This document shows, one piece after another, positions 9,045 through 23,785 of a DNA stretch of 46,986 nt (its first letter is position 1; every line of letters begins with the position of its first letter). The notes beneath the pieces are model-generated. The model had not been told where the DNA came from, ran no database searches, and saw only the letters and a list, made by a program, of their open reading frames with translations. The position numbers and the translations under genes are program-made. This DNA comes from Opitutales bacterium. Its GTDB lineage: Bacteria > Verrucomicrobiota > Verrucomicrobiia > Opitutales > JABSRG01. The stretch is taken from NCBI GenBank assembly GCA_049599475.1, contig JBMYOQ010000029.1:1-46986 (forward strand). The letters are read 5' to 3'.

Positions 9045-9046
9045 AA

Positions 9047-12000
9047 ATGATACGGAATATACACCTCAGATCCTGCACTTTTGTAGGGCTCGTACTCCTG
9101 CTGACTCTGCCATTCGCACGCGCAAGGGATCCCTTTCTCACGGAGACGCATAACGATCTCATTCTCCACGTCGATGTGAATGGCGACTCCCTAGTCGACA
9201 CAGTTCTGGCAGACAAAGCAGGGGCCACCATCGTGGTCGGACTCAATTTGGGTCCAGAAAAAGCACTCGTCTGGACTAATGTTATGCGCGTGAATGGATT
9301 CGAAGGAATCGATGGTCTGGCATTTGGTTCATTTGGCCCTAATGGGGTTGACGCAATCGCGGTTAGCCATCGAGCCTCCAACCGAGTGGCATTATTTGAA
9401 GAAACTGAGAACATTCTGAGAGCGCTATCTCCAGCACAGATTTTCCCAAGTAACATCGGCCCCGACGAGTTGGTTTCAATGCGCTTAGGGAGTATTGATA
9501 CCGCACTCGGCGAATTACTCGTCCAAACAACATTCAATGGGGCCGTTTCAGATGCCCAAGAAGGCCTGTATTACGAATTGGATCAACTGAACCACACTGG
9601 AGCGGGAACCAACCTACAGGGAGCAAAACATCTCCAACGCCTGCGGTGGAATGATTCTGATCTACCTGTTTTGGGAGTCATCCGCGAAGCCGAAGGGAAC
9701 GCATTCCTAGAGCTGTACGAAATGAAAGAATTCAAGGATAGCGGCCCGAAAAAGCTGATAGATGGATCCTATTCAGTTTCAAGCGGATCCAAGTACGCCT
9801 GGTCCATGCTAGAGAGCGAATCCTCAATCGCATTCACATACGTAACCGGAGGGAACACCATAAAAGGAGCTCTTCTTAGATCAGGAGCTTTGGAGGATGC
9901 ATTCTCTTACAATGAGCTGGGGAAGGGCACAATAGATATGCTTATGGCCTTCCAAAGCAGCGCCGGGGTCCGCCTCTTTTCGTTTCTCAGCGACGGATCT
10001 GTTCGTATCCTTGAAATGGATACACGCCTGAATATCGAATTGGATAACTTAATAACGCCTCTTAAGGGATTCGAATTTTCCTCTGCGAGTCCGATTGATT
10101 CAGATAATTTCTCACTAACCTCTATCTCTGGCGACACTGAATCCTATGAATTTTACGGATACGATGGTCGCGAACACAGAAGTCTTGGAATCAAAGAACC
10201 ACTGCCCTCTCGAAAGATCGCTCCTTCCCCGGATAATCTGTTCGTTTTCACAAACGAACCTTTCATCACATCTCAGCCCATTCTTGTATCTCGTGACCAA
10301 AAAGGAGATTGGACATCTCAGCCTGTGTTGAGCCCGGAAGAAACCACCGTTGAAGATTTTGACAACCCGAGCCAAGGTCTAGGCATTCCAACGACTAATG
10401 TAAGTTTCACAGATTATTCTGATGGCAATGGAAGATTCGTCTTAGGCAATCAGGTCCGTCCAGACATAGCCCTTTACAGTTTCGAAAGTCGCGTGGGCGC
10501 TGTCATTAGCGAGCTGGCCGCGGACCCCAGATCCGGCCAATATTCAGATTCAATCCAGGTTGCGCTGACAGCGGATAATCCGCAGGTACTCGTCTATTGG
10601 TCTATCGACGGAGATTGGTCCCCCTACACAGGGCCGATCCCGATATTTTCCGACTCCACTCTCTATTTCTTCGCTGAAGATAAAGATGATGGATCGCGCT
10701 CACCCATTTTTTCCGAAGACTACACCTTCATCCTACCCATCGAGTCTCAAGATGCAGACGGTGATCTAGTGCCCGATTTCGTCGAAGTAGATTTCGGTCT
10801 AGATCCGTTTCTCAGTGGCAATGACGCCGACGGTGATGGTGCCTTCGACCTGGAAGAAATCCTCGAAGGCAAGGATCCAAACGATGCAGGCGATACTCCT
10901 CCTTCGCAAGATCTCGCACTCTACCGATCAGCCTTCGACCTGGGCGCTATTCCGGAGGCCCACTCAGGATTGAGCTCTTCACCCCTGCGCTCACCACTAT
11001 CAGGAGATGATGCGTCTGCCGCCCTGCTAGAAGTCCATGAACTGCTCGATGCGATACTAGATCAGAAAGCAGTCAGCGCCGGCGCAATCCCTGGCGAGCC
11101 ACTACCCTCCGCCGTATTCGATGCGCTTCCGGGCGACACAGAAAACGGTTTTTTACTCCTCGCAACGCAAGCTTCCTACTCAATCTCAGTCTCCGGATCA
11201 ATCGAACCCATCGGACGAGAAATGCTTAGCTTAGTATCCATTCCGACCTTTGAAAACAGCGTGGTCCCCTATACCTTTTCAGAAGCGACGCTTGCCGATG
11301 GCGTTACTGCATGGATCGACGCAGCAAGTACCTACTATGAGTCTCAAGAGAGATCTCGTATCGACGAGCTCCTTACATTGGAATCTACAGCCAAATTTCT
11401 GATTTTCGAGAACATAATAGCCAGCTTATTCCACGACCGAGGAGACATCCCCTACCCAGCGGTGAGCCTAAGCCCCCACAGGGAAAGCGAAAGTGCGATT
11501 TCATTCGGAGACAGCCCAGACGAAGATCAGGTGCTCTACTTTACTCCGACAGGATCGGAACTTCTGGCACTTTCACAGTATCAAGAAAGCGCAGACAATG
11601 GCTACGACTTGGAGCTTCTGTTTTCCCAGATATCTGACGAGCTGGACAGCCCCACGAGTGCCTCATCATCCGCATTCCTTACTCTGGTCGAGGAAGTCTA
11701 TCGAATCGCCACTGCAGGCAGTGAATCACTTGGCAGCTTCCGGTCCCCAGTCGACACGCTCAGGGATTTCCTCAGGTATGGTCAACTCAATGCCAACTAC
11801 GCGGCAGCAGTGAGTGATAATTCTGGAATCACTGGCCTGAACGCGAGCACCCTCCTCGTTGCAGCAGATGTACCTACAGTCTTCACATCAGATCTTCCAG
11901 AACTCAGCGTAGACACGCGCACCTTGATTGTGACTCATGCAAACGAATCCGGCGCTATCCTCACAAGCGACGATAGCGTAGTCCCTGCATTGAGCGTTGC

Positions 12001-12598
12001 TGTGCTTTACTCGGAAGTGAGCTCTCTCGCAAATCAATCGTTTGGCCTCCTTCCAGAGACTACCATTCTTGTCACAGGGTATGTAGAAGACCCAAGTGAC
12101 AACCCATGGTCAGCTGATATGGTTCTAGATCCGATCAGCATTGAGTTACTTTCGGTTCCAACACCACAACAGGTAGACTCCAACAATAACCTCCTCGAAG
12201 ACTCCTTTGAAACTATCTTTTTTGGCGGGCTAACCGCAGGCCCTCTGGGAACAGATTCCGACGACGATGGGTTCAGCGATTTCCAGGAAGCCATCGAAGG
12301 CACGTCGCCCACTGACGGCCTGAGCTTTCCTTCAGGCTTCGCATTCTCACCCAGCCTACAAAACATACAAATGTTCGTGGATCTCGTAGCAGATGAATTC
12401 GTAATGCAATTCAACTACCCAGGCATCTTTTCCGAACAGGTGAACTTCGACATATACCAATCTGATGATCTTCGGACTTGGTCACCGACGGGTGTCCAAG
12501 CCACATACCTCGGCAACGGTAGCTGGGAAGCCAGTGTCGCCCAACCCCCACTCAGTCCAAAAAAATTCTTCCGTAGCGTGTTGAGCCTGGCGCCTTAG
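9047..12598 (+). CDS. Secreted surface protein: FG-GAP/VCBS-like N-terminus, chitobiase/Fn3-associated domain, thrombospondin-3-like Ca-binding repeats, putative verrucomicrobial C-terminal sorting domain
   Basis: Signal peptide; VDVNGDSLVD; PRSGQYSDSIQVAL..YWSIDG..YTGPI; DADGDLVPDFVE, DADGDGAFDLEE, DSDDDGFSDFQE; ends YQSDDLRTW...KKFFRSVL. Starts 2 nt after the upstream stop codon. Confidence 0.8.
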   Translation: MIRNIHLRSCTFVGLVLLLTLPFARARDPFLTETHNDLILHVDVNGDSLVDTVLADKAGATIVVGLNLGPEKALVWTNVMRVNGFEGIDGLAFGSFGPNGVDAIAVSHRASNRVALFEETENILRALSPAQIFPSNIGPDELVSMRLGSIDTALGELLVQTTFNGAVSDAQEGLYYELDQLNHTGAGTNLQGAKHLQRLRWNDSDLPVLGVIREAEGNAFLELYEMKEFKDSGPKKLIDGSYSVSSGSKYAWSMLESESSIAFTYVTGGNTIKGALLRSGALEDAFSYNELGKGTIDMLMAFQSSAGVRLFSFLSDGSVRILEMDTRLNIELDNLITPLKGFEFSSASPIDSDNFSLTSISGDTESYEFYGYDGREHRSLGIKEPLPSRKIAPSPDNLFVFTNEPFITSQPILVSRDQKGDWTSQPVLSPEETTVEDFDNPSQGLGIPTTNVSFTDYSDGNGRFVLGNQVRPDIALYSFESRVGAVISELAADPRSGQYSDSIQVALTADNPQVLVYWSIDGDWSPYTGPIPIFSDSTLYFFAEDKDDGSRSPIFSEDYTFILPIESQDADGDLVPDFVEVDFGLDPFLSGNDADGDGAFDLEEILEGKDPNDAGDTPPSQDLALYRSAFDLGAIPEAHSGLSSSPLRSPLSGDDASAALLEVHELLDAILDQKAVSAGAIPGEPLPSAVFDALPGDTENGFLLLATQASYSISVSGSIEPIGREMLSLVSIPTFENSVVPYTFSEATLADGVTAWIDAASTYYESQERSRIDELLTLESTAKFLIFENIIASLFHDRGDIPYPAVSLSPHRESESAISFGDSPDEDQVLYFTPTGSELLALSQYQESADNGYDLELLFSQISDELDSPTSASSSAFLTLVEEVYRIATAGSESLGSFRSPVDTLRDFLRYGQLNANYAAAVSDNSGITGLNASTLLVAADVPTVFTSDLPELSVDTRTLIVTHANESGAILTSDDSVVPALSVAVLYSEVSSLANQSFGLLPETTILVTGYVEDPSDNPWSADMVLDPISIELLSVPTPQQVDSNNNLLEDSFETIFFGGLTAGPLGTDSDDDGFSDFQEAIEGTSPTDGLSFPSGFAFSPSLQNIQMFVDLVADEFVMQFNYPGIFSEQVNFDIYQSDDLRTWSPTGVQATYLGNGSWEASVAQPPLSPKKFFRSVLSLAP

Positions 12599-12667
12599 GC
12601 GGAATGGATTTACATCGAATATCGCTCTGCAATTGAGTTTTTTCATGTAGTGTGTGACTCGTATTCT

Positions 12668-13339
12668 ATGGTCGCACTTCTGAAGTTCCTTCGTACCTAC
12701 TGGCCTTTGGCGATTATTTTCGCCGTCTGTATCCTTGCGTTCTTGGTGGATCTCGTGGCCTTTGCCCAAGACATCTGGATTTCTCAAAATCTCTTGATGG
12801 TTCCACACAAGATTTCAGGAGCCTGGGAGAACTTGCTGGCCGGCAATCTCGGATGGGGCTCGCTAAGCCCTCTAAGTACGCTAGTAAGCTACGCCTTTTT
12901 CCACGCGGACTTTGGCCACATCTTTTGGAACCTGCTGTTCATATGGATATTTGGCTCTTTGGTTCTACGCGAACTCGGCGCAGTTTGGTTTTTCATCTGC
13001 TATTTCTTGGCGGCGATCGCCGGGGGCCTCGCGCAGACTCTTTTAGACCCCCAGTCGACCATACCCACGCTTGGTGCTTCAGGGGCGCTCATGGGCCTAG
13101 AGGGCATCTACTTCGGCATGGCAATGCGCTGGCGATTACCGAATCCTGATGTATGGCCCATCGCCGAACCGATTCCTCAGGAACGTCTCATGATTCTAGC
13201 CGGATTCGGCATTCTCATGGACATTTCAGGCGTCATAGGCCAGAGCGGAAACATCGCCTACGGAGCCCACATCGGCGGATTCATCTGCGGCATGTTTTTG
13301 GCAACCGTCGTAATTCCAAGGCCGCGGAATGCACAGTAG
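12668..13339 (+). CDS. Rhomboid family intramembrane serine protease
   Basis: HADFGHIFWN, catalytic GASG and AHIGG motifs; multiple TM helices. ATG at 12668 preferred over the ORF-track GTG at 12650. Confidence 0.92.
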   Translation: MVALLKFLRTYWPLAIIFAVCILAFLVDLVAFAQDIWISQNLLMVPHKISGAWENLLAGNLGWGSLSPLSTLVSYAFFHADFGHIFWNLLFIWIFGSLVLRELGAVWFFICYFLAAIAGGLAQTLLDPQSTIPTLGASGALMGLEGIYFGMAMRWRLPNPDVWPIAEPIPQERLMILAGFGILMDISGVIGQSGNIAYGAHIGGFICGMFLATVVIPRPRNAQ

Positions 13340-13371
13340 ATTAGGTAAAATGCAGGTCTATACAGACGCTG

Positions 13372-15357
13372 CTATTTCAAAATATAGTCTATGGTATTCT
13401 GAACAGGATCGCCAACGTAGAGCTCCTCGATCATCGCTTGAGCCACATCCAGAGCTTCTTTGGCAGATCCGTATTCCTCCTCGTTGAGATATTTATGAAT
13501 TTGCGTGGTGAGGATCGAAGACACAGCAGGATATGTCACCATTTGGGGCCGATTACGATACATCCCATTTACAAACACATTGCGGGCATATTTTAGCGCA
13601 TCGTTCTGCTGATAGACCTCATCGAGTACGCTATCGATGACTGGGACACGAATTGCCGTGCGGATACGCCCATCAGGCATAATACTTTTTTCAAGGCTTC
13701 GTCTCCTCTGATATTTTTCACTCACCAAAAAGGAAATAATCTCGGCTGCGGCCTCTTGGGTCCCTTTCTCCAAAGCGTAAGGGGTTATTGCATACATCGC
13801 CCCTCCAAGCGCACTGAAGCCAGTATCTTCAAATGAGCTCTTAAAAGACAAGGGCCTAGCAATAGGGCGAACGGAGCCCATGTTTGGGTATTCTATGCCT
13901 TCATCAAAGCGCTGAAGGCTAGTGGTCCAGTTTCGCATCGCAAAAGACTTTCCCTGAGCAAAATGGCGCTCACTCGACTTTTCGTTCAGCCCAAAGGTCC
14001 CTTTCTGAATGTCTCTAGCTCGAAACGAAGCTGGGTCGATAAACTGAATTTCGACCATCTCTCGAATCCATTCCACCGTCTCGATCATCTTTGCATTATT
14101 CACATGCGGCGGTTTCTTCCTGTTGGGAACCGCGATGTTTCCCCCGCGGGCCCACAGGAATTCGAGTAGGTTGCACATAAAGCCTTCGTAATTCGCTCCC
14201 TGAATCACGACACCCGTCCAGTCTTTATATTGCTCTTGTTGGCGAAGCTCCAAAAAGAGTTCGACGAAGTCTTCCCAACTTTCTGGATCCTCTTTGACAT
14301 GATCTCCGCGCACCATAATTGCACTTACACTCGTGTAATAAGGAATCGCGTGGACGAGCAGTCCGGTATTACCTCCTTCCGGCAGCAATACACTCGCAGC
14401 CTTTTCCCGTAAACCAGACGATAATTTTAACTGGTCTATCTCGTCGAATTCTTGCAGGGAAACTACCTTGCCTGACTCCGCAAACAACTGAAGCCAGTGG
14501 TGGTCGAGCTCCATAATCTCAGGCTGAAAATCATCGTTTCGTTCAAATTCGAGTAGAATAGACCTCAGCAGTTCCGATACATTCTGATGTAATGGGTCAT
14601 CAACAGTTTGAGATGCATCGAGAGCAGGATCATTATAATCCAAGACTACTTCAAGGTTCGCCAAACCTTGATTCGAGAGATCCAAGTTAAAACTCTCCAT
14701 CTGGGTCTCGCGCGTCTCTGCGTTACCAAATTTCCCATCAAAATTCCCGGCGACTCCAAGAACCACAGGTTGGCTGAATGAATTGAGGAAAAGGACAACG
14801 CAGACAAGCAATACGGCAACGATTGAACTCCCCCATATAAATCGCTTCTTCCGCGCTTTGGCGCGCTTTTCAAACTCAAGATCCGCAGCTCGCTTCTTCT
14901 TTGGCTTCGGCCCTGGGTCTGGCGTCTTAGGCTCTTGAGTGGCGGATCCCTTTCCCCCTTTCAACGCCGCGATAACGACCTGAGAAAGCTCTTCAATCTT
15001 TTCCTCCATCGGAGGATCGATAGCCTCAAGCCAGTGCGTGGTACTTAAATAGTAAGCCAGGTTTCCCCCGGGACTCAGGCGCTCAATTCTAAGAGGTATG
15101 ATTGTTTTACCCTCCGTTACCGCTTGATGCACTTCACGCGACACGTGCTCGGACTCGTTTGATGAGCTGGAGAAAACGAGGATTACAACCGACGCTTCAC
15201 TGATTGCCGAAACAATCTGCTTCGGCCAACTCTCGCCAGGCACGACATCCCGGGGCGCTATCCAACAAGGAATTCCTTTGCCCTCAAAGCGAGCGCAGAC
15301 AGCATCTGCGATGAGTTTGTCGTTTTTTGAGAAAGAGATAAAAACTTTATGTGCCAC
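13372..15357 (-). CDS. TIR domain - single TM - extracytoplasmic sugar-binding (family 1 SBP, trehalose/maltose type) fusion protein
   Basis: TIR_2 motifs VFISFS..D, CWIAPRDVVPGESW, S..VSREV (putative catalytic Glu); basic linker then TM FIWGSSIVAVLLVCVVLFL; SBP motifs AIPYYTS, PESWED, QGANYEGFMCN..E..W..GG, FAMRNW, LGG, RP..Y..VS. Confidence 0.88.
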   Translation of the reverse strand: MAHKVFISFSKNDKLIADAVCARFEGKGIPCWIAPRDVVPGESWPKQIVSAISEASVVILVFSSSSNESEHVSREVHQAVTEGKTIIPLRIERLSPGGNLAYYLSTTHWLEAIDPPMEEKIEELSQVVIAALKGGKGSATQEPKTPDPGPKPKKKRAADLEFEKRAKARKKRFIWGSSIVAVLLVCVVLFLNSFSQPVVLGVAGNFDGKFGNAETRETQMESFNLDLSNQGLANLEVVLDYNDPALDASQTVDDPLHQNVSELLRSILLEFERNDDFQPEIMELDHHWLQLFAESGKVVSLQEFDEIDQLKLSSGLREKAASVLLPEGGNTGLLVHAIPYYTSVSAIMVRGDHVKEDPESWEDFVELFLELRQQEQYKDWTGVVIQGANYEGFMCNLLEFLWARGGNIAVPNRKKPPHVNNAKMIETVEWIREMVEIQFIDPASFRARDIQKGTFGLNEKSSERHFAQGKSFAMRNWTTSLQRFDEGIEYPNMGSVRPIARPLSFKSSFEDTGFSALGGAMYAITPYALEKGTQEAAAEIISFLVSEKYQRRRSLEKSIMPDGRIRTAIRVPVIDSVLDEVYQQNDALKYARNVFVNGMYRNRPQMVTYPAVSSILTTQIHKYLNEEEYGSAKEALDVAQAMIEELYVGDPVQNTIDYILK

Positions 15358-15479
15358 GTCTAATTTAATTTTAGTCCAAGCCAGCCGGATTCATTCCAAG
15401 CCCTGTATTTATCTACAGCTTAATCCACTGAGCCTACAGTCAAAGCTGTCGCTGAAAGGCACCTGTTGAACAATTACGA

Positions 15480-17783
15480 CTACTCGTCCACCTCTTTGCG
15501 ATATACCACGGACCAGTCAGACACCTCGTCAATCATATCGATAGCTAACAGATCCAGGGACTGAAGAACGGATTGAATATGCCCACCAATCGGTCCCAAC
15601 TCTGACTTATCACCCGAATGTGAAATACATTCGCTGAGCTCTAGAAATTCCTTCTTTTTATCCGCAAGAAAAGAACTCATATCCTTATAACGATCCGCAA
15701 GACGTGCCGCCTCTGTGAAGAATTTCACAGAGGCAAAAATACTAGCGAGGGTCGGCAGGACAGCACCAATGATCAGCGGAATTGCTGAAACGCTTTCATC
15801 ATTCCAACGATTGTAGACCAAAAATACCAAGAACAACAAAGTGCCGAATGCGGTTGTATTGAACACTACATTACCGAATGACAAGTTTCGGCTAATTACC
15901 TCATACCTTCCGGCATTTTTATGATGGTATTCGACTTGTCCAATCAACCAATCATTTATGAGCAAATTCAATGCATCAACATGTCCAGGGCGCCACATTC
16001 TGATCTCTTTTTTCCCGATAGAGAGCGACAAGGATCTCTTCTCTACAATGCCAGGCATATCTTCGGAGAAGGGATCTATTTCACGAATCCAAGCCCACAA
16101 AAGCCAATCCATGGCATTAGTTTCTAAATCGTTAGACAGACTCCTAGATTTAGTAACAGAAGGAGGACGCGTATGTCCAAACAACGGTAAATATCTCAGT
16201 GATCGCATGCGCTCCATGGTGTATCGAGTCACAATTGCCTTACGATTCCAACTCTTGTCCAAAGTCGCTTCTTTTCTGCTGTTTCCAAAAAATTTCCCTT
16301 TGAGGTAGATAATACCACCAAACAGCTTGCCCTCTCCATTCGCCCAGAACGAATTTAATAAAATACCTCCAACACAGAATGCCTGAAAGGAATAGATTGT
16401 AAGATCCATCAAGCGGGAAGGGTCCTCGAATGCTTCATGAACAATCGACCCGGCCAATGCAAAAATCACCAAAAGAAAATTCACCAAAAACGAACCTCGG
16501 TACCGCCCAGTATAATGTGAATTTAGTGATTTGATCACCACACGCTTACTTTCCATCGGCGGTTTGAGCCCAGGACCAAGAACAGGCTCAGTGTTCGAAT
16601 TCCCCTCAGAGTCAGCTGCTCTAGAATCAGTAGCGCTGGTGAATATAGTATCTGATACAGGGCCAACGGTGGTGTGCTCCTTCTTGCCTCCGACTCGGCA
16701 GAGAAAGACTGACTCGAAAAAACTATAAATTCTCTCATGGATTGTCTCAGCCTCTCTCTTAAACCAAGCACTCCTCCCTTGAGGAGGTTCAAACAGATCT
16801 TTCAATAGGGTAACATTCTCTGGTACCGGATGCCTCAACGTGGCCGCTGCTCGGGAGCCCTTCGTAACAGGAAATTCTGAATCATTAGCCAGAATACCAG
16901 CTAAACAGGAGAGCATTTCATCAATAGCATTCTCATTTTTGTCCGACGCACACGGACGCCTCCCACCTGCCATGCGGATCTCCTCTATGTCGTCGTCATT
17001 CCGCAGCCACACAAGGGAAGGTTCTTCCTCTTTGCCACGTAAACAAATGAATAGCACCGGGAGCTTTTGTCTTTGAGCCTCCTTCATGGTCTCAACCGTT
17101 CCACCCGCTCGATCCTCATCATAAGGGTCTACAATCGCTATCAGGCAATCGATCTGTCTCAACAAAAGCGCACTTTGTGAGCGGTGGCCGCGACGCCTTC
17201 TTACGGTCCTCAACTTTTCTCTAGACGGCGAGATATCGAACGTAGCCGGGGGCTTAGCTTCATCTAGCCCATAATGTATCAGTTCCCGTTTTTTAGGATC
17301 AAAAATCCCGTCGGCGGCGACAAAACTGTCCACCCGCTCAAAGGTCTTCTCCCAGTTTTCGATTTCGCCAATCTCCCGCTCAAAGCAATAGGGCTTCAAA
17401 GAATCATCGCTGGGATGCATCTGCTGACTAAAGGGAACGATAGCCTGAATATGTCCCTCCACATCGCTGCGACTTTTAACAGAGCTCACAAAGGTCGAAA
17501 TCGCCTGGGTATCTGAACCTTCTGCCAAGCCACACGCGAAGGTAAAGCGTGGCATTTTCTCTGTGTCATAAAAATCGATACAACTACGATTATATTTCGA
17601 ATCAATTTGTCCATAGATATCCGCTAGAAGCTGGCTCACGGCCTCGAACACTGGCGCTAAAACCTTCGGAACTGACTCTCCTTCATAAGGAACTAGACCT
17701 TTTAGATTAGCTTTCCCTGCCAAACCCACTCTTAGAGTCAGGCGCGGCTTAGGAACAAGAGACGTTTGGCCAAATATAAGCAT
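15480..17783 (-). CDS. SLOG-superfamily domain fused to two SLATT/DUF4231-like 2TM modules
   Basis: SLOG-like motifs LRVGLAG, GLAEGSD, DCLIAIVD..AGGTVET..A...LPV. First TM pair is followed by W...TRYTMERMR; second is WLIGQVEYH + TM pair + RY..M + E..DW. Confidence 0.75.
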   Translation of the reverse strand: MLIFGQTSLVPKPRLTLRVGLAGKANLKGLVPYEGESVPKVLAPVFEAVSQLLADIYGQIDSKYNRSCIDFYDTEKMPRFTFACGLAEGSDTQAISTFVSSVKSRSDVEGHIQAIVPFSQQMHPSDDSLKPYCFEREIGEIENWEKTFERVDSFVAADGIFDPKKRELIHYGLDEAKPPATFDISPSREKLRTVRRRRGHRSQSALLLRQIDCLIAIVDPYDEDRAGGTVETMKEAQRQKLPVLFICLRGKEEEPSLVWLRNDDDIEEIRMAGGRRPCASDKNENAIDEMLSCLAGILANDSEFPVTKGSRAAATLRHPVPENVTLLKDLFEPPQGRSAWFKREAETIHERIYSFFESVFLCRVGGKKEHTTVGPVSDTIFTSATDSRAADSEGNSNTEPVLGPGLKPPMESKRVVIKSLNSHYTGRYRGSFLVNFLLVIFALAGSIVHEAFEDPSRLMDLTIYSFQAFCVGGILLNSFWANGEGKLFGGIIYLKGKFFGNSRKEATLDKSWNRKAIVTRYTMERMRSLRYLPLFGHTRPPSVTKSRSLSNDLETNAMDWLLWAWIREIDPFSEDMPGIVEKRSLSLSIGKKEIRMWRPGHVDALNLLINDWLIGQVEYHHKNAGRYEVISRNLSFGNVVFNTTAFGTLLFLVFLVYNRWNDESVSAIPLIIGAVLPTLASIFASVKFFTEAARLADRYKDMSSFLADKKKEFLELSECISHSGDKSELGPIGGHIQSVLQSLDLLAIDMIDEVSDWSVVYRKEVDE

Positions 17784-17899
17784 ACTGAGATGAAGCGTAA
17801 CCTGCGCAGCAATTTGCCCACCCTATTTGCGAAATATGATAGAGTCTAGTTCTACAAACTCCCAGAAGACGCACAATAGTCCGAGCCAAGAAGCCCGTC

Positions 17900-18550
17900 T
17901 TAATCATCATCCTTCGCGGATTCTTCAGTAACCTTGAGAGAAAAATTAACACGACCTCCGGTATCAGCGACTAAAGGTTCATCATTCAACATTTCGGCCA
18001 TGCCGTTAGATTTGACCAGGAAGTTTGCAAGAAACAAGCTACGTTCGTAGAAAACGAGTGCTTCGCAATGATATCCATTTTCGTCCGCTTGTAGAAATTT
18101 GGATGGACGCGCAAACTCGTCGACGATTTCTTTTTTGGCTCCGTGAACCGCGAGGTCCATGGATGTCTCAACAATCGCGAAAGGTCCCTCATCGCCATGC
18201 ACAAATGCACAAAAAAATCCCAGGTAAGAGAGGACAGACGTTGGAGTCAACTGAGGAGGATTCTTTGCATTCATCGCATGAATTGGAGGAGAAGTCCCAT
18301 CGAGACGATGAAGATGCTCATCAAGCATCCAAGCACCCGCAACCAATCCATTTGACCACGTCAAATCTCGCGCAATTATCAAGTCCACATCATCCCACCA
18401 AGTAAGTGGCATTCTCTCTACTATGGTTGTATCAGCAGAAATAGGAACTGCGTCGTCTATCCAACCAACACGCCTGGCAAATGCATCAGTTTCCTCAGCA
18501 TTGAGTCGGATAGGTTTTATATTATAAAGAGGTATCGAAAATGGCTTCAT
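17900..18550 (-). CDS. Hypothetical protein (216 aa), translationally coupled to the upstream ankyrin ORF
   Basis: ATGA start/stop overlap at 18547-18550; globular-looking sequence with LDGTSPPIH..N, YLGFFCAFVHGDEGPF and GMAEMLNDEP segments. Confidence 0.8.
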   Translation of the reverse strand: MKPFSIPLYNIKPIRLNAEETDAFARRVGWIDDAVPISADTTIVERMPLTWWDDVDLIIARDLTWSNGLVAGAWMLDEHLHRLDGTSPPIHAMNAKNPPQLTPTSVLSYLGFFCAFVHGDEGPFAIVETSMDLAVHGAKKEIVDEFARPSKFLQADENGYHCEALVFYERSLFLANFLVKSNGMAEMLNDEPLVADTGGRVNFSLKVTEESAKDDD

Positions 18551-21192
18551 AGTGTTTCGTTAAAATATTCAGTTTCGATACTACGAAACCGTTCATAATT
18601 TAGGATTGAGGCTAGGTCAGAAGGCACTCTTTGATAGGTATCAACTGGAAGAGATTCTAGCCCAGATAAAACAGCTTCGAATGCATCAAATTCACCGTGA
18701 ATCACCAATCGATGTGTCAGCGGAAAGAAACCGGACAAATCTGGTATTATCTCTAATATCGACTCGATTACACTGGGCTGTTCTTCATCCAGGAGATGCT
18801 GGACCAAAGGGTGACTGAATTTCAAACTCTTTGGCAAAGGTTCTTCGAGCCGCTGAAAAAGAGCGAGAGATGCCTCGAGTTCAAACAAACCGGGATCTTT
18901 CTCCGGCCTGATGCCTTTGGTAAGGGCCTCTTTCAATACTTCAGTATGCCCTTTAGAAATCAACAGAAAGGCTCCGGATTCTCCTTTTTCATTCCGCTTA
19001 TCGAGAATTCCTTTAGCATGCACCAATACACTCTGTCCCACATCTTGACGGCTACTCACAAGCCAATCGAGTAAATCTTCGCCCGGGATGCATTCAAATT
19101 CCCCTTTCTCAACCAACCACTCTTCAATCAAGCGCTTTGCATCGGGAAAATGATTCGAATACTGACGTGCCTTTTCAGCATCTTCAGATCTCAGAGAGTC
19201 CGAACTAAGCAAAAGCGACACGCATTCTGATACTCGACTTGCAAGTGGTGCCCCTCCCCGAGAACTCGCGTTAAACGCAGTTACCTGAACTATTGGGTGA
19301 AGTCCGTCGACAAAATGGTGAGAGGCTGACGCATTGTTAAAAGGCTTCAAATCCTCACTAAGAAGTACAGCCAGAGCATCAGGCATGGCATTTCGAGCCG
19401 CCATAGCCAAAGGAGTGATGTGTTTTGAATTCTCCGCGTTCGGACCTACTAACAACCATTCCCTTGTTGCATTCGTCAGATATTCAGACCACAAAATTTC
19501 CCGAATAGCAGCCCCATGATTCTTCAGCGCTGCAACACGGATTACATTGTTTCCCTTTGCATCAAAAAGCTTTAGATTAGCATGAGGTAGAAGTGTCCTT
19601 ATATTTTCGAGACGAGAGTCCGTAGTCGCAAAAAATATTGGAGACTGACGGTATTCGTCTAAGACATCCACGTCACCTTTAGAGCTCACAAGGTGATTGA
19701 CAAAATAGGACTCTTTTGAGCGAGCGGCCTCATGGAATATTGTGATACCCTTTGGCCCCACGATCGATGAACTACTTTCATAAGACGGCAAGAGCCTATC
19801 AAATATCTCGATTCTTCCCGGCTGGATCGCACTTATAATCGGATGCCATTCGGCATTATCGGCCTGAGTAATATTCGCTCCCCTTTTGATTAACACATCA
19901 ACGACTTTATTTGCACCCCAGGCAGCCAACATCAAAGGAGTGTTGCCCGAAGGTGTCTCAAAATTCAGAAGATCGGGATTGGATTCAAGCCAACCGTCGA
20001 TGGTATCAGCTAGGTCATATCGAGCGGCAGTATGAAATATGGAAGTCTCACCGTTAACAACAGTGACCAATTCTTCTGGTTTCTCTGCAAGTGCCAATAT
20101 ATCTAAACAACTTTGCCTCAAACGATTATTCGAATCTGACAACTTAGCATCCATGGATGCAGCAGGCGACCAAACCGAGCGCTTGATGACTAACGTCCTT
20201 ACCGCGTTATGGATCATTTCCTTTAAATCGGAGCTTTCATCTTCAGAGTTGCGACGAATTCTCGCAGCGGTCCTTCGAAATGCTTCGATACTTGAAAGGG
20301 CTTCACGCTGCTCCTCATACCAAATCTGCGCCGGCTCCCAGTTATCAAGCAAAGCCTGATGAACAAGACGAACCCTTCCTGGCCCAGAGGGGACTAAGAG
20401 ACGCCGCTTTTCGTGAGACTCAATCAAGTCCCGCATGGATGCAATATCACTCGACTTTGGCATATCAACAAGGCGCATCTGCAAGTCATCATCTGCACTC
20501 ACGAGAGCCGACAAAAAGTTATCAAGCGCTACCGACTCCGGTATTCGCTCGGTACTCTTTCTCATTTCCATTCCGGGAACTGCTGGCAACCCGTGAGATT
20601 CTGTAGCAAAAATCCATAATACCCCATAGGCGATTTCCCTGCTCTCATTCACTCGTGATATGTAGCGCGTGACAAAATTGGGGAATGTTGCCAGATGACG
20701 ATTCGCTTCTTCAACATCCACAATATTGGGAACTCCCTTAAGTTCCATGCCAGGAAACGCTGCCAATCCTTGAATCTTAGTAGCATAAATCCAGAGAAGC
20801 CCGATATCAAACCCCTTTGGGTCAGCAGCTCGTCGTAAGAATTCCTTAATGCTAGGTGGAAGTGAGTTAACATATTCGTTTGCTAGATCTCCATCTACAA
20901 CGACCGGAAACTCCCCAATTTCTCGATCAATCATCCACCCAGCCTCTTCCCATGCGTCAGCAACCAATTCGGTCATCAATGGCGCTAAGTCGAAGAATAT
21001 CCCCCGACGCTTAATCTCACTCAGCTCTATTGCATCTGCCTCATCTGAAAAGCTCTTGGAAAAGCTGCTGCCTTCCTGGACTGTTCGATCCTGAAAGGTT
21101 GCGAACAGCCTATGAAGCCAGATACCTAGAAGCGGTAAGAACGATGCGTGAGTCTGCATGCGCCCAGGACACTTTTCAAAATCCTGAACCAT
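18547..21192 (-). CDS. C-terminal part of a frameshifted STAND NTPase: helical/winged-helix region plus about 8 ankyrin repeats
   Basis: nSTAND1-like LPLL..WL..LF, RRLLV and VRLVHQALLDNW motifs; ankyrin repeats GNTPLMLAAWG, GITIFHEAAR, QSPIFFA, GNNVIRVAA, HITPLAMAARN. The frame is open upstream to 21285. Confidence 0.82.
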   Translation of the reverse strand: MVQDFEKCPGRMQTHASFLPLLGIWLHRLFATFQDRTVQEGSSFSKSFSDEADAIELSEIKRRGIFFDLAPLMTELVADAWEEAGWMIDREIGEFPVVVDGDLANEYVNSLPPSIKEFLRRAADPKGFDIGLLWIYATKIQGLAAFPGMELKGVPNIVDVEEANRHLATFPNFVTRYISRVNESREIAYGVLWIFATESHGLPAVPGMEMRKSTERIPESVALDNFLSALVSADDDLQMRLVDMPKSSDIASMRDLIESHEKRRLLVPSGPGRVRLVHQALLDNWEPAQIWYEEQREALSSIEAFRRTAARIRRNSEDESSDLKEMIHNAVRTLVIKRSVWSPAASMDAKLSDSNNRLRQSCLDILALAEKPEELVTVVNGETSIFHTAARYDLADTIDGWLESNPDLLNFETPSGNTPLMLAAWGANKVVDVLIKRGANITQADNAEWHPIISAIQPGRIEIFDRLLPSYESSSSIVGPKGITIFHEAARSKESYFVNHLVSSKGDVDVLDEYRQSPIFFATTDSRLENIRTLLPHANLKLFDAKGNNVIRVAALKNHGAAIREILWSEYLTNATREWLLVGPNAENSKHITPLAMAARNAMPDALAVLLSEDLKPFNNASASHHFVDGLHPIVQVTAFNASSRGGAPLASRVSECVSLLLSSDSLRSEDAEKARQYSNHFPDAKRLIEEWLVEKGEFECIPGEDLLDWLVSSRQDVGQSVLVHAKGILDKRNEKGESGAFLLISKGHTEVLKEALTKGIRPEKDPGLFELEASLALFQRLEEPLPKSLKFSHPLVQHLLDEEQPSVIESILEIIPDLSGFFPLTHRLVIHGEFDAFEAVLSGLESLPVDTYQRVPSDLASILNYERFRSIETEYFNETL

Positions 21193-22679
21193 CTTATTGA
21201 TCGCTTCAATAACATTCCTGCTAAGAGGTAATCCAGCTTGGTTCGAAATCGTTGAAACAAACTGACGAAAACGCCTAAAGGAAAATCAACGTTCTCTCGT
21301 TCAGCTCTTAAATCGGTATACTTTTCTATTTCGAGAGCTCTATATGCCTCTTCTCGCATACTTTCCAAGGTCCCGACTAGATATACTTCATCCTTTTTTG
21401 AGAGTTTACCGAGAAATCGCACAACTTGCCACCAACCCCCTTTAATGTCCCGATCATACACTTCGGCCTGCAACAAATCGATGATTTCTTCGAACTGATC
21501 GATCGCCAAAATCAATTGCCTTTTGGACTCAAGAAGTAACCTCTCGACATGAGACGCCGCTCTTTCAGCTAATTTGTCTATATCAAGTATCGATTTTAAA
21601 CGGCTATTTGTCGGAATCCCCAGCTCTTCGCAGATTACTCCCCACAAACGGAAAAAGGGTGTGTGTTCGTCTCTACCAAAAAGGTGACCCACCCGAATGA
21701 CGACCACATTAGCATCAGCGAGTTTTGGAGGCAAATATTCTAGAAGGCCTTTCTGAAGTATGGAAGATTTACCACAACCACTAGGTCCTTCGAGTAGAAA
21801 TATCATGCCCTCTCGCCCGACACCTTCAAGCCTATCATGGAGCTTCTGGCGCAAATCATATCGGTCCGGCAATGAGAGTGGATCTCCGTAGTGAAAATGA
21901 TCCATGCCTCGCTTAAATGGAAGTGAGCCCGCCTTATCAGGAAGTAAATCGAGTAACACCTCTTTTGATGCAGCTGCCATCCTTTTCGACATCTGCCCGG
22001 CATCGGTGTATAGTTTCGCACGCTTCCCTTGCTGATCCGAGGCGAGCATTCTCAGTAGATTGAAGAGCGCTTTTTTTTGAGGAAAATATTCCTCTTCCTC
22101 AAATTTTTTGCGGGCCTCTAGACCTTCTTCAGTATAACCAAACTTTTTAGATTCATACAATTTGCCCTGATTAAAAGTAATATCATTAACGCTCCTAGCC
22201 GCACTAATACTCTTATTAGCGACGTATCCTACAAGGGTGCGAGTACCCTCAATCTGCCGCAAGCCAACCAGTAATTCATAGACAGTGCCCGTTAGCGGAA
22301 ACTTCCCCCGATCCAGTAGCGAATCTCGCTCACGAGGATCCTGCGGCCATGGATGAGTCAGACCAAAACTTCCCCACTCCTTCATAAGAGACTCAGCTTC
22401 ATCCGGTAATTCACCCTGCAACGGCATTCCGATACGCTCTCCGAACATTACAACCGTCAAGACTACACGTCCGCGGATTTTATCATCAATCTGCCGCTGC
22501 GCGGTGGCCCACACATTCAACGTGGTTCCACCTTTTGTCTTCTCTTCCCAAAGATACGGAATCACCGGATAACCGATAGACTGAGCAGACTCACGAAGGA
22601 GATACGCCAACTCTCCACGGGACTCTGAAAGATCATTGGACGAGGAAACTAAAACAAAGGGCTGAGAGAGATTATCCAT
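21126..22679 (-). CDS. N-terminal part of a frameshifted STAND NTPase: DUF4062/TIR-like domain plus nSTAND1 P-loop domain
   Basis: VSSSNDLSESR..WEE..QRQID..VVMFGERIG..TGTVYE (DUF4062-like); PFKRGMDHF; Walker A GPSGCGKSS; Walker B LILAIDQFEE. The last ~50 aa look out of frame. Confidence 0.82.
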   Translation of the reverse strand: MDNLSQPFVLVSSSNDLSESRGELAYLLRESAQSIGYPVIPYLWEEKTKGGTTLNVWATAQRQIDDKIRGRVVLTVVMFGERIGMPLQGELPDEAESLMKEWGSFGLTHPWPQDPRERDSLLDRGKFPLTGTVYELLVGLRQIEGTRTLVGYVANKSISAARSVNDITFNQGKLYESKKFGYTEEGLEARKKFEEEEYFPQKKALFNLLRMLASDQQGKRAKLYTDAGQMSKRMAAASKEVLLDLLPDKAGSLPFKRGMDHFHYGDPLSLPDRYDLRQKLHDRLEGVGREGMIFLLEGPSGCGKSSILQKGLLEYLPPKLADANVVVIRVGHLFGRDEHTPFFRLWGVICEELGIPTNSRLKSILDIDKLAERAASHVERLLLESKRQLILAIDQFEEIIDLLQAEVYDRDIKGGWWQVVRFLGKLSKKDEVYLVGTLESMREEAYRALEIEKYTDLRAERENVDFPLGVFVSLFQRFRTKLDYLLAGMLLKRSIRWFRILKSVLGACRLTHRSYRF

Positions 22680-22972
22680 GAGGAAAGATCCCCACCTAAA
22701 GCGCCCAAGGATGTATTTTACAAAAACACAAATTCGACTCAGTAACCTTACGGGAGATTTCTAGAAAATTCGCTATAGAAACTCCGATGCATTTTCTAGA
22801 CCTAATTTCCGCGAAACCCTAACAATCATGCCACATTCAAGTCACAATGCGGCAAAGTTGATCTAATTGATCAAATCAGTCTCATTTAGTAACATATAAT
22901 TCCATTTAGAGTCTAATAATTGCAGAAGACCCGTGGCATTAGTTGAACATACGACTCCTAAACACTTCAACA

Positions 22973-23785
22973 CTAGGCCAACAAATTCAGCACCGTCTCT
23001 TGGTTTGAGTTGGCTTGGGTGAGCATGGCTAGATTGGACTGGTATTGGAATTTGGTCTGAGCGTAGGCGGTGGATGCTGTCGCGTAATCCGTGTCTGCTA
23101 TCAAGCTATTGGCATTCGCTAGATTCAGTAGACTTGTGTAGAGGTTTTGCGAAGCAAAGAGCATCCGTGATTGCTGGGAACCATTTACTGCCCGCTGGAG
23201 GGCGACTTCGTCGGTGGCGTTCGTGAAGTCTTGGACACTTAGCTCACTTAATGAGCTCGCTGATGTAATTGTGCTGACACTACTGCCCGATGCGTTGAAA
23301 TCTGCCTGCGATATGGTGACTTCGCCTCCTCCCGATTCTGTAGTGCTCACGGACAATGCGCCGTCTTCTTCGGAGAACAGGTTTACTCCATTGAAGGTCT
23401 GTCCCTGGAGATCCTCTAGCTGCTGGGATAGCTCGTTAAACTCGGCGTCATATCCGGCGAGATCGCTCTCATTCTTGGTAAAGTCGTTCGACATGACTTT
23501 GAGCTCGGACATCCGGTCCAAGATCGAGCCCGCCGTCCTTAAAACTCCGTCCTGTGTTTGCAGAAAAGAAATCGAATTCTGGACATTCGTATTGGTAGCA
23601 CTTGTACGACTCATCGCAGAGTTCAACTTCGTAGACACAGCGAGCCCGCCGGCATCTACTGACGAACTCGTAAGCCGGGTACCCGAGGATAGGGCTGCCA
23701 GATTCTGCTGAAGCTGACTGCTGGTAGTGCCAAAACTATATAAAGACGAGCTGGCGGTGTTGTTTGTATTTATTACCAATGACAT
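22973..23785 (-). CDS. fliC: Minimal flagellin (D0/D1 only)
   Basis: MSLVINTN, LSSGTRL..DAGGLAVS, N.QNSISFLQTQDG, L.RMSEL, FNGVNLF, RAVNGSQQSR, S.IADTDYA, MLTQAN..VLNLL. Confidence 0.93.
   Translation of the reverse strand: MSLVINTNNTASSSLYSFGTTSSQLQQNLAALSSGTRLTSSSVDAGGLAVSTKLNSAMSRTSATNTNVQNSISFLQTQDGVLRTAGSILDRMSELKVMSNDFTKNESDLAGYDAEFNELSQQLEDLQGQTFNGVNLFSEEDGALSVSTTESGGGEVTISQADFNASGSSVSTITSASSLSELSVQDFTNATDEVALQRAVNGSQQSRMLFASQNLYTSLLNLANANSLIADTDYATASTAYAQTKFQYQSNLAMLTQANSNQETVLNLLA

Follow-up and report, generated by a model that had tools for sequence, protein, structure and literature searches.

A low-GC island encoding STAND-ankyrin, SLOG-SLATT-like and TIR proteins in a marine Opitutales bacterium: a candidate Thoeris-like conflict circuit with a three-gene conserved core

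Do the four adjoining genes of a low-GC, 9.6-kb island in a marine bacterium of the Opitutales form a single conflict system, and is that system already known under a name? An earlier note, made from the letters of the DNA, had proposed an undescribed four-gene, Thoeris-like circuit with two sensors converging on one SLOG-gated membrane effector. Here we examine this proposal within the window, by which we mean the whole stretch of 46,986 nucleotides that was analysed.

A single insertion between rhomboid and flagellin genes

The span 13372-22679 holds five minus-strand ORFs making up four genes, one of which is frameshifted: ORFs of 517 aa (21126-22679) and 881 aa (18547-21192) for gene A, and of 216 aa (17900-18550), 767 aa (15480-17783) and 661 aa (13372-15357) for genes B, C and D. 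The gaps computed from the ORF coordinates are -4 nt between the STAND gene and the gene for the 216-aa protein, then 116 nt and then 122 nt, in agreement with the earlier note, which had seen four co-oriented genes with gaps of -4, ~116 and ~122 nt. It had also rightly placed them between a rhomboid and a flagellin gene. Both neighbours belong to the core genome: on the left a rhomboid protease gene (12650-13339, plus strand; PF01694, E 9e-28), with orthologues in 5/5 family genomes searched, and on the right a flagellin gene (22973-23785, minus strand; Flagellin_N E 6.5e-20, Flagellin_C E 3e-10). On one contig of a genome of the same genus (G001), the orthologues of flagellin (80% identity) and rhomboid (64%) lie only 45 nt apart, and the entire four-gene block is therefore an insertion, a single island of 9633 bp that runs from rhomboid stop to flagellin stop (13340-22972). 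Its AT-richness, previously judged by eye, is confirmed by windowed GC, which is 0.464 for 13340-22972 against 0.505 for the genome, a value as low or lower being found in only 3.0% of 1740 equal-length genome windows; gene D (0.485) is slightly richer in GC than genes A to C (0.45-0.464). A search for repeats flanking the island found none, no known defence genes were seen beside it, and the viral contigs and plasmids searched held no relatives of its genes.

Domain architecture of the four proteins

Gene A is read in two minus-strand frames that share 21126-21192. The first (21126-22679, 517 aa, the final ~45 codons out of frame) carries a TIR-fold N-terminal domain and a P-loop NTPase core, which matches the Pfam nSTAND1 model (PF20703) at E 1.3e-10, scoring 42 bits where the cut-off is 27.1, and has the Walker A motif GPSGCGKSS; on these two grounds gene A belongs to the nSTAND1 NTPases. 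The second (18547-21192, 881 aa, open upstream to about 21285) continues with the helical/winged-helix part of nSTAND1 (model positions 282-378, E 4.4e-6, 27.0 bits), ankyrin repeats (Ank_2, E 3.6e-20) and a C-terminal helical region. It is 31% identical to its G001 orthologue over 692 aa and is covered by the A3 profile over model positions 473-1285. All of the homologues of gene A that were found (38/38) are single full-length proteins of 1118-1557 aa. The domain call of the earlier note, STAND-ankyrin, is solid.

The same note had given both sensors a TIR or TIR-like enzyme; a TIR domain stands for gene D, and for gene A a TIR-like predicted fold only. The N-terminal domain of A (residues 1-255; 21915-22679, minus strand), with invariant residues S12, S13, D16, R21, Q61, E81, G84, W111, P128-T132 and E135, is predicted to be a Rossmannoid fold of the TIR/nucleoside-deoxyribosyltransferase type. 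Foldseek matched its AlphaFold model (pLDDT 87.1) best to the plant TIR 7xoz (E 9.3e-4, probability 0.98, TM 0.32/0.43), and VIA-align to the TIR of MAL (Z 10.4, rmsd 3.5, 137 aligned), followed by TIRAP (9.6), TIR-SAVED (9.4), the RPS4 TIR (9.3) and then MilB/NDT (8.0-8.7); the top Z only modestly exceeds the background of 7-8 quoted by VIA-align. Given that deoxyribosyltransferases and LOG/DprA proteins come close behind the TIRs (Z 7.2-8.7), the head matches the TIR/DrHyd/SLOG assemblage and not TIR specifically. Assignment as a TIR by sequence profile was rejected: no Pfam TIR family matched the head at E<=0.1, and hhalign of its alignment against a 97-sequence TIR_2 alignment returned a probability of 1.5%. 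The models nonetheless predict a flavodoxin-like fold of the TIR type, to which the sequence profiles add no TIR match.

Gene B (17900-18550, minus strand, 216 aa), whose start overlaps the stop of gene A by 4 nt, encodes an uncharacterised alpha/beta domain with no match in Pfam, PADLOC or NCBIfam. Its model (pLDDT 93.5) found no matching fold in the PDB (Foldseek best E 0.16; VIA-align best Z 5.9 over 51 residues). The domain is widespread, with 1242 representative clusters at E<=1e-3. Among the best 150 of these clusters there are 58 proteins of at least 800 aa; in 49 of them the domain sits C-terminally, and 27 of the 58 share A's TIR-fold N-domain as well. Pfam recognised nSTAND1 plus ankyrin repeats on 9 of 30 examined. 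What the earlier note had counted as a separate component, an 'unknown protein', is, judging from these fusions, a detached C-terminal domain of A that is fused to it in many other bacteria. B is most likely part of the receptor's sensing or regulatory end.

Gene C (15480-17783, minus strand, 767 aa) would combine a SLOG-like cytoplasmic domain with two SLATT-like modules of two TM helices each. The SLOG-like domain (about residues 1-290; 16914-17783, minus strand) has invariant P11, P13, R18, G20, G23, A87, G89, D91, G227 and T229, and the motifs GxAEGxD and GGTxE/D are conserved in the family; the ATG at 17783 retains a conserved N-terminal strand, PRLTLRVG, that is missing from the 719-aa database gene call. 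The membrane part (about residues 410-767; 15483-16556, minus strand) appears as two TM hairpins with amphipathic helices after each, and has hydrophobic segments at 430-448, 639-657 and 665-683 and a weaker one near 462-482 (four helices in two pairs). The earlier note had read the architectures of the proteins correctly, but on C itself the Pfam evidence stays below the cut-offs: cpYpsA (SLOG) is the sole match, at E 0.02 and 15.1 bits, below the cut-off of 26.2, and no SLATT model matches at E<=0.1. No relative was found by sequence search of the PDB. Among eight family members, DUF4231 matches five, DprA two and YAcAr one (the last two weakly, E 0.05-0.15); the homologue in a Rhodobacter MAG matches SLATT_3 at E 1.1e-3, SLATT_1/DUF4231/SLATT_3 occur on 10-46% of the members of the Atlas neighbours of C, and an Atlas model of residues 1-241 of C aligns with YpsA SLOG clusters at TM 0.70-0.73. 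These weak profile matches, motifs and structural leads hint at SLOG plus two SLATT modules, and we use the name for C in this tentative sense.

Gene D (13372-15357, minus strand, 661 aa) has the TIR-TM-sugar-binding architecture first read from its sequence, and this call is solid. The TIR domain (residues 1-135; 14953-15357, minus strand) matches Pfam TIR_2 at E 3.7e-21 (76.3 bits against a cut-off of 28), with Glu75 in SEHVSREV, which going by the general TIR motif is the candidate catalytic glutamate. A Lys/Arg-rich stretch precedes the one TM helix at 173-191. The periplasmic domain (residues 200-661; 13375-14760, minus strand) is a family-1 extracellular solute-binding protein: it matches SBP_bac_8 at E 8e-9 (36.1 bits against a cut-off of 27), and a phmmer search of the PDB returned 1eu8, a trehalose/maltose-binding protein, at E 2.7e-17 (residues 66-447) and MalE3 6dtq at E 1.1e-14. 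No homologue shares the full architecture, 96/96 non-self matches covering the TIR alone.

A conserved three-gene unit and its possible function

We counted as informative the distinct loci holding an A-type gene plus B (n=6). C adjoins A-B in four of them, in three gene orders: A-B-C in the window and on contig C99 of G001 (proteins 31/40/28% identical to the window's), C-A-B in the Rhodobacter MAG (L011, identical to L103), and A-B with a convergent C in a metagenome (L105; L106 is the same sequence, truncated). D is present in 0/3 of the other A-B-C loci. The conserved unit is thus three genes, for the STAND-ankyrin, 216-aa and SLOG-SLATT proteins, and not the four-gene system of the earlier note, as the four co-occur nowhere else in the searched data. 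At the two remaining loci A-B stands without C: in a Pyrinomonadaceae MAG (L010) no C was found within -6/+4 kb or anywhere in the 7.3-Mb genome, and at L104 B is followed by an IS fragment and an ALTTAQ-repeat protein. SLOG-SLATT genes are rare (3/61 relatives, 6/401 phylum genomes), and the A family occurs in 1/401 phylum genomes. The closest relative of C (in G003, 44%) adjoins a DGR, with no A-B nearby. The wider C family adjoins TIR or STAND genes in 4/6 phylum loci, with TIR at L097, L100 and L101 and nSTAND1 at L102; 4/6 of the neighbouring TIR proteins are TIR-TM-X, and membrane-anchored ones (TIR-TM-repeats) stand beside SLOG-SLATT relatives in 3/6 sampled loci. The neighbourhoods thus bear out the expected association of SLOG-SLATT relatives with STAND and TIR genes, but D is absent from all other loci. 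D belongs to the TIR-TM-sensor class found beside SLOG-SLATT relatives elsewhere; it is itself specific to this island, and is a plausible second, envelope-facing input to C, at somewhat less than even odds.

We propose that the island encodes a Thoeris-like, NLR-like conflict circuit built on this three-gene core, probably anti-phage and acting by abortive infection, and put the probability of this reading at roughly 0.55. The ankyrin/B end would recognise an invader-derived protein, and NTP-dependent oligomerisation of the STAND module would gather the TIR-fold heads, which would make a signal derived from a nucleotide, and from NAD if they behave as TIRs do. That signal would be bound by the SLOG-like domain of C, a putative inner-membrane protein, whose SLATT helices may then breach or depolarise the membrane.

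A different partition of the genes, which we consider unlikely, would make A, with or without B, a self-contained NLR-like system in which the TIR-fold head is itself the effector (e.g. by NAD+ depletion) and C is not the receiver; C would pair only with D as a two-gene TIR plus SLOG/SLATT Thoeris-type system, and two independent systems would lie side by side. The 2/6 loci with A-B and no C, the genome G449 in which C was not found and the commonness of fused A-B proteins all fit such independence, as does the N-terminal TIR effector on a STAND protein, a standard tripartite architecture in the accessible part of one source (10.64898/2026.10.19.760177), while a C-D pair would resemble the three loci that have a TIR gene beside SLOG-SLATT relatives and no A-type gene. 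However, C stays next to A-B in 4/6 loci and three orders despite 23-44% identity among the copies, a canonical TIR gene is absent from 3/4 A-B-C loci, and D has no counterpart elsewhere.

The state of gene A raises the question of present activity. Its lesion lies at 21262-21275 (minus strand; coding strand GGCGTTTTCGTCAG), within the nSTAND1 module, and amounts to one base missing in a T-run: in a three-frame translation against the homologues P0009 and P0016, the homologue frame resumes one base back, after DFPLG. A contig from an independent metagenome run (X2) is identical over 21205-21542, with 0 differences and 0 gaps, although contigs are blind to minority variants and ribosomal slippage. 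Owing to this one lost base, the STAND arm is probably inactive in this genome, a search of which showed A and B to be present in one copy each. The island as a whole could on this evidence be a decaying remnant without current function, its sensor gene dead and the rest being lost; we hold this to be rather improbable, as the ORFs of B, C and D are intact and of full family length, and the single base is the sole lesion. Moreover, such decay would concern present activity and not the nature of the module.

It is very improbable that the locus serves physiological signalling and not immunity, with D sensing a periplasmic disaccharide, a TIR product gating a C channel to tune membrane potential or motility, and A-B as an unrelated regulator: the likeness of D's outer domain to trehalose/maltose-binding proteins, the adjoining flagellin gene and the failure to see phage or known defence genes nearby would suit it, but the block is a low-GC insertion missing at the same site in a sister species, its distribution is sporadic and rare, its association of STAND, TIR and (in relatives) DGR cassettes is typical of conflict systems in the accessible part of PMC7159879, and the position beside flagellin is a coincidence, flagellin and rhomboid adjoining each other even without the island.

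Comparison with known systems

For the preferred reading, a Thoeris-like and NLR-like conflict circuit, the closest known systems are Thoeris types I, III and VII and Shaseng. The four-gene block matches none of the named systems of PADLOC-DB 2023 and NCBIfam 2026, as the earlier note had supposed. SLOG-SLATT fusions and networks of TIR, SLOG and SLATT domains were reportedly predicted by comparative genomics by Burroughs, Zhang, Schaffer, Iyer and Aravind in NAR in 2015. That prediction is cited in the available part of PMC7159879, which also describes GTPase-centric conflict systems in which SLATT proteins come with effector domains related to nucleotides (calcineurin phosphoesterase, PNPase, TIR).

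Type VII Thoeris, in the available portion of its preprint, consists of a TIR (ThsB) and a SLATT effector (ThsH) with a canonical cADPR signal (bioRxiv 10.64898/2025.12.03.692087), and Shaseng, likewise as far as its accessible text goes, is a defensive system of two TIR proteins and a SLATT protein (bioRxiv 10.1101/2024.12.27.630466). As in these accounts, the island would pair TIR-family candidate signal generators with a putative SLATT-type effector of 2-TM modules, and one effector can answer to two TIR-type proteins. Unlike them, effector C would add an N-terminal SLOG-like domain and has two SLATT-like modules, one generator would be a 1400-aa STAND-ankyrin protein with a head that is TIR-like in fold only, the other TIR (D) is anchored in the membrane and bears a binding domain in the periplasm, and a fourth protein, B, is present.

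With types I and III the island would share a SLOG-type domain that presumably receives an ADPR-derived signal made by a TIR; the part of the type VII preprint available reports that the SLOG of ThsA binds 3'cADPR and that type III combines several TIRs with a SLOG effector, its signalling being uncharacterised (bioRxiv 10.64898/2025.12.03.692087). A TIR gene also lies next to the putative effector, as in Thoeris, D being 122 nt downstream of C. In contrast to type I, with its ThsB TIR and SIR2-SLOG ThsA, the output would be membrane helices and not SIR2, and the SLOG of C is nearest, weakly, to those of the YpsA/cpYpsA type. PADLOC matches on D are confined to the TIR (SAVED_TIR at E 4.9e-8, Aga_TIR and ThsB), and assignment to Thoeris type I/II, with a ThsA of SIR2-SLOG or Macro-TM build, was rejected, the ThsB models reaching only E 0.011-0.018 over about 45 residues of D; neither ThsA nor any other PADLOC model matches C.

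Gene A shares the tripartite layout of bacterial STAND/NLR-like receptors (nSTAND1 of Kaur et al. 2020; Avs, bNACHT), namely an N-terminal effector or signalling domain, a STAND NTPase and a C-terminal repeat sensor, as set out in the accessible parts of two sources (10.64898/2026.10.19.760177; PMC7159879). Membership of Avs or another named STAND system was rejected: PADLOC returned PDC-M72A and 'Ankyrin' alone, which match the 881-aa ORF in its ankyrin region, and nothing on the 517-aa ORF. Gene A differs from those receptors in its divergent head of predicted TIR fold, which has no Pfam family, in having a further C-terminal domain, which has no recognised fold and here forms a gene of its own (B), and in its linkage to a separate SLOG-SLATT gene. 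The earlier claim of an undescribed Thoeris-like circuit therefore holds as regards the name but not the principle: signalling from TIR to SLOG and from TIR to SLATT has already been described, and the island is a variant of that known logic.

The inserted island and the linkage of its genes

Five open reading frames, all on the reverse strand, lie between a rhomboid gene (12650-13339, forward strand), which forms the left flank of the island, and a flagellin gene (22973-23785, reverse strand), which forms the right. Those of 517 aa (21126-22679) and 881 aa (18547-21192) are the first and second frames of A, an nSTAND1-ankyrin gene; they are followed by B (216 aa, 17900-18550), C (767 aa, 15480-17783), which would encode a SLOG-SLATT protein, and D (661 aa, 13372-15357), which encodes a TIR-transmembrane protein with a sugar-binding domain. 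The gene spacings of -4, 116 and 122 nt claimed in the earlier note are confirmed by the coordinates. In G001, which belongs to the same genus, the orthologues of the flagellin (80% identity) and of the rhomboid protein (64%) share one contig with 45 nt between them; the distance in the window is 9633 nt, and thus the block from A to D is an insertion. The GC content of the island is 0.464 against 0.505 for the genome, a value as low or lower in 3.0% of 1740 equal-length genome windows, so that the AT-richness first judged by eye holds up. No repeats above chance-size matches flank the island, and Rfam gave no match within the window. Scans of 13200-23100 found 12 promoters against 12.5 in shuffled sequence and 9 terminators against 9.5, and since these counts are at shuffle level they are uninformative on operon structure. 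Upstream of the rhomboid gene, 222-12598 of the forward strand holds three successive giant open reading frames (1863, 1065 and 1183 aa, the first of which may extend past the window start); none matches a Pfam family at E<=1e-5, and the sole hit among them, weak and from NCBIfam, links the third with the cell-cohesion protein MtsD (E 3.7e-4).

That A, B and C form a functional unit is argued chiefly from their linkage, which is far beyond chance. C adjoins A-B in four of the six informative loci, in three different gene orders, while members of the C family turned up in just 3 of the 61 relatives and 6 of the 401 genomes of the phylum sample, and the A family, sampled by taxonomy with three candidates scored per genome, in 1 of 401 phylum-sample genomes (the window's own) and 1 of 401 in the family of genome G450 (G450 itself). 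The four loci are the window, where A-B-C is followed by D; contig C99 of G001, where an A cut at its 5' end by the contig end is followed by B, C and a diversity-generating retroelement (DGR), with 31%, 40% and 28% identity to the window's proteins; a Rhodobacter MAG (L011, identical to L103) with the order C-A-B and unrelated flanking genes; and a metagenome contig (L105, identical to the truncated L106) whose entire 7.7 kb is filled by A-B and a convergent C. The other two have A-B without an adjacent C: one is in a Pyrinomonadaceae MAG (L010), whose 7.3-Mb genome (completeness unstated) gave no C-family match, and in the other (L104) an integrase-core fragment and an ALTTAQ-repeat protein come after A-B. 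L107, where A and B are fused and only about 700 nt of contig remain beyond them, was left out of the count as uninformative. The 4.8-kb stretch of L104 that is open on both strands is the ALTTAQ-repeat gene itself, and masked sequence was rejected as its source. D is absent from every other locus carrying A and B, and thus the proposed four-gene co-occurrence stands for A-B-C, with D present at the window only. Searches of PLSDB plasmids (tblastn) with C and with residues 1-493 of A gave no match; a scan of metagenome contigs with search alignment A7 gave 174 pattern matches but no relative; and viral contigs yielded nothing for alignment A8 and one weak 60-residue match for alignment A4.

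The STAND-ankyrin gene and its detachable domain

The 517-aa and 881-aa reading frames share 67 nt in different frames. A search with the first of them returned 38 homologues, every one a single protein (1118-1557 aa), and the two are therefore one gene with a frameshift. The upstream frame ends in ...ENVDFPLG and the downstream frame reads FRQFVSTISNQAGLPLS..., while homologues run through this point in one frame as DFPLGEVRGFL... or DFPLVDVRDFV.... The switch falls within GGCGTTTTCGTCAG (21275-21262, coding strand), which is one base short relative to the frame of the homologues. Programmed -1 frameshifting at the run of T was considered, but no classical slippery heptamer is present and a run of four T is short for transcriptional slippage, so that a plain mutation is rated more likely. 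The entire stretch is contained in the probable source run (X1). The lesion is not a private assembly error, since an independent marine metagenome run (X2) has a contig over 21205-21542 (depth about 3.6) with 0 differences and 0 gaps, although a comparison of contigs would not reveal minority variants. The sensor gene A is broken in the window's genome.

In Pfam, both halves of A match nSTAND1 (E 1.3e-10 and 4.4e-6), and the second half also matches ankyrin repeats (E 3.6e-20). The first 255 residues match nothing in Pfam, PADLOC or NCBIfam, and are conserved in 28 homologues with S12, S13, D16, R21, Q61, E81, G84 and a PLTGT motif among the invariant positions. An AlphaFold model of this head, built with the homologue alignment (pLDDT 87.1), has as its best Foldseek match the TIR domain 7xoz (E 9.3e-4, probability 0.98, TM only 0.32/0.43). 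VIA-align against 48,161 chains ranks the TIR of MAL on top (Z 10.4, rmsd 3.5, 137 residues aligned), followed by TIRAP (9.6), TIR-SAVED (9.4) and the RPS4 TIR (9.3), then by the CMP hydrolase MilB and nucleoside deoxyribosyltransferases (8.0-8.7), and by LOG and DprA (7.2-7.6). Given these structural matches and a probability of only 1.5% when its profile was compared with that of 97 TIR_2 domains, the head belongs to the TIR/deoxyribohydrolase/SLOG assemblage by fold only. Hence the suggestion of a TIR-like enzyme survives as a predicted fold and a putative activity, but not as a TIR recognizable by sequence.

B had been described as an unknown protein, which is right insofar as it matches nothing in Pfam, PADLOC or NCBIfam, but it is no orphan: HMMER against 1.84 billion representative proteins found relatives in 1242 clusters at E<=1e-3, 466 of them at E<=1e-10. 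By length, the best 150 of these 1242 divide into 77 of at most 360 aa, 15 of 361-799 aa and 58 of at least 800 aa. In 49 of those 58 long proteins the B domain ends no more than 40 residues from the C-terminus; the A profile matches 30 of the 58, with the N-terminal domain of A included in 27. Pfam annotation of 30 of the best 150 gave nSTAND1 with ankyrin repeats in 9, ankyrin repeats only in 6 and nothing in 11, besides single cases of FGE-sulfatase, TIR-NB-ARC-TPR, TIR/CHAT/beta-helix and Peptidase_S41. We conclude that in B the C-terminal domain of A has turned into a separate, translationally coupled gene. A predicted complex of B with residues 600-880 of A scored 0.14 against a mark of 0.32 and is given no weight either way. 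The model of B itself is very confident (pLDDT 93.5) but resembles no solved structure: the best Foldseek E is 0.16 and the best VIA Z is 5.9 over 51 residues, and its ESM Atlas neighbors are clusters of hypothetical proteins only.

The B domain is not confined to the A-B-C system, since stand-alone homologues are conserved at 78 loci on genome contigs (L012-L089; MAGs of Micavibrio, Alphaproteobacteria and Bdellovibrionales) that lack any STAND or SLOG-SLATT gene within 10 kb. In 14 of these loci a right-handed beta-helix protein of 2200-3250 aa is encoded directly upstream, and the remaining neighbors are housekeeping genes (O-antigen ligase, RelA/SpoT, TerC). At one locus in an Acidobacteriota MAG (L027, 5583-11078), a B-type gene is directly followed by one for a TIR-NB-ARC-WD40 protein (1620 aa), which gives the B domain another type of STAND partner.

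The SLOG-SLATT gene and its TIR neighbors

The C family comprises eight proteins, C included, in an index of 5.8 billion. When aligned, they share the N-terminal strand PRLTLRVG with a Gly-rich loop behind it, the motifs GxAEGxD and GGTxE/D, and two hydrophobic hairpins with conserved amphipathic helices after each. The 767-aa start of C is the correct one, since the invariant strand at the N-terminus is missing from the 719-aa database call (P0001). On C itself Pfam finds cpYpsA alone, below cut-off (E 0.02); across the eight members it finds DUF4231 in five, DprA in two, and cpYpsA and YAcAr in one each, and the homologue in the Rhodobacter MAG matches SLATT_3 (E 1.1e-3). In the Atlas, the clusters nearest to C carry SLATT_1, DUF4231 or SLATT_3 on 10-46% of members, and the model of residues 1-241 aligns with YpsA SLOG clusters (TM 0.70-0.73); the family profile reached a best E of 0.75 against PDB sequences. 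The best reading, of lead quality, is that C would combine a SLOG domain with two SLATT-like modules. The SLOG-SLATT-SLATT assignment proposed earlier is thus backed by the motifs, the matches of relatives and the Atlas leads, but not by an above-cut-off Pfam match on C.

D carries a clear TIR_2 domain (76 bits, E 3.7e-21), a single transmembrane helix at 173-191 preceded by a Lys/Arg-rich stretch, and an outer family-1 solute-binding domain (SBP_bac_8, E 8e-9) whose closest resemblance is to 1eu8, a trehalose/maltose-binding protein (E 2.7e-17). By the positive-inside rule, its TIR should be cytoplasmic and its binding domain outside. Of its 97 matches, the 96 other than D itself cover only 16-46% of the query, namely the TIR domain, and the partners fused to that domain are of BON, WD40, TPR/TolB-like, FGE-sulfatase, kinase or PBP-like type; the architecture class is common and the exact protein a singleton. 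The window's genome has two further TIR_2 reading frames on other contigs (C92:11192-11596 and C35:41989-42225, within 497-aa and 730-aa open frames) and one SLOG-SLATT gene only.

Six additional loci from the phylum sample (L097-L102) represent the wider C family. In L097 (genome G265, 4518-15785), five genes in a row encode a protein with SAM and superinfection-immunity domains, a TIR-STAND-TPR protein (1322 aa), a SLOG-SLATT protein (694 aa), a SLATT_1-like protein with six helices (628 aa) and a TIR-transmembrane-ankyrin protein (885 aa), so that this locus resembles a more elaborate version of the circuit in the window, with canonical TIR domains. In L100, a TIR-transmembrane protein (484 aa) and a TIR-transmembrane-TPR protein (864 aa) surround a SLOG-SLATT protein of 763 aa; in L101, a TIR-transmembrane-TPR protein (794 aa) and a TIR-TPR protein with no transmembrane segment detected (1206 aa) lie beside one of 568 aa; in L102, an nSTAND1 protein with a transmembrane segment is near a 519-aa member; and L098 and L099 hold orphan members amid housekeeping genes. 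Canonical TIR neighbors therefore occur at three of the six loci, and four of the six such TIR proteins share the TIR-transmembrane-outer-domain layout of D. The adjacency of such proteins to SLOG-SLATT genes lends class-level support to a link between D and C; on this basis, and with D in the same insertion, we put the chance that D is part of the circuit at somewhat below even.

The closest relative of C (44%), in genome G003, has a DGR and a Roc-COR-LRR gene as neighbors, but no A-B. DGR cassettes directly adjoin the SLOG-SLATT genes both there (L008, 7357-10220) and in G001 (L009, 5920-9097), each with an FGE-sulfatase-fold target, a reverse transcriptase, a second FGE-sulfatase target and three repeat copies. 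Template-to-variable mismatches fall at coding-strand A in 16/18 and 19/25 cases in L008, and in 24/49 and 21/44 in L009.

A possible circuit and its relation to known systems

Burroughs et al. in 2015 reportedly predicted SLOG domains as sensors and SLATT modules as pores. The island's gene block is real and its logic is familiar: STAND sensing, TIR-family signaling, a SLOG receiver and a SLATT pore. The most far-reaching reading, to which we give a probability of about one in five, is that a single bacterial immune effector, a SLOG-gated double-SLATT pore, would be served by two receptors of opposite topology. One would be NLR-like and cytoplasmic, a STAND-ankyrin protein in which a divergent TIR-fold head generates the signal, while the widespread, new-fold B determines specificity or regulation; the other would be TLR-like, with a periplasmic sugar-binding domain that switches on a cytoplasmic TIR, so that NLR- and TLR-type inputs converge on one nucleotide signal.

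As had been supposed, no named system matches the island: neither PADLOC (2023) nor NCBIfam (2026) returned a system model, and, as far as our searches show, the A-B-C(-D) arrangement is not described as a named system in the literature. It consists of the divergent TIR-fold head on an nSTAND1-ankyrin protein, the detachable C-terminal domain of unrecognized fold, the effector with one SLOG and two SLATT modules and, here only, the TIR-transmembrane-sugar-binding receptor. If the three-gene module works as we infer, it would add a STAND front end to TIR/SLOG/SLATT signaling, assign a function to a TIR-fold domain outside all recognized sequence families, and provide a context for an uncharacterized B domain that is found in 1242 representative clusters, as a rule at the C-terminal end of STAND-ankyrin proteins. 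The layout of D, a membrane TIR with an outward sugar-binding domain, is the closest bacterial analogue to that of a Toll-like receptor, and the recurrence of the TIR-transmembrane-sensor class beside SLOG-SLATT genes makes it a testable idea that bacterial TIR signaling can be triggered from outside the cytoplasm. The case is weakened by the fact that the sensor gene A is broken in the window's genome.

Several known systems share parts of this design. In the relevant passages of one preprint (bioRxiv 10.64898/2025.12.03.692087), the SLOG domain of type I Thoeris binds 3'cADPR, type III combines several TIR proteins with a SLOG effector through signaling described as uncharacterized, type VII couples a TIR to a SLATT effector via canonical cADPR, and 29 putative effector classes are distinguished, many with transmembrane helices. 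Shaseng, as outlined in another (bioRxiv 10.1101/2024.12.27.630466), consists of a SLATT protein with two TIRs and confers protection on E. coli, and the tripartite STAND layout, nSTAND1 included, is restated in part of a 2026 preprint (bioRxiv 10.64898/2026.10.19.760177). Where the Thoeris types validated so far rely on small, separate TIR sensors, the A-B-C module would place an NLR-like STAND protein at the front end.
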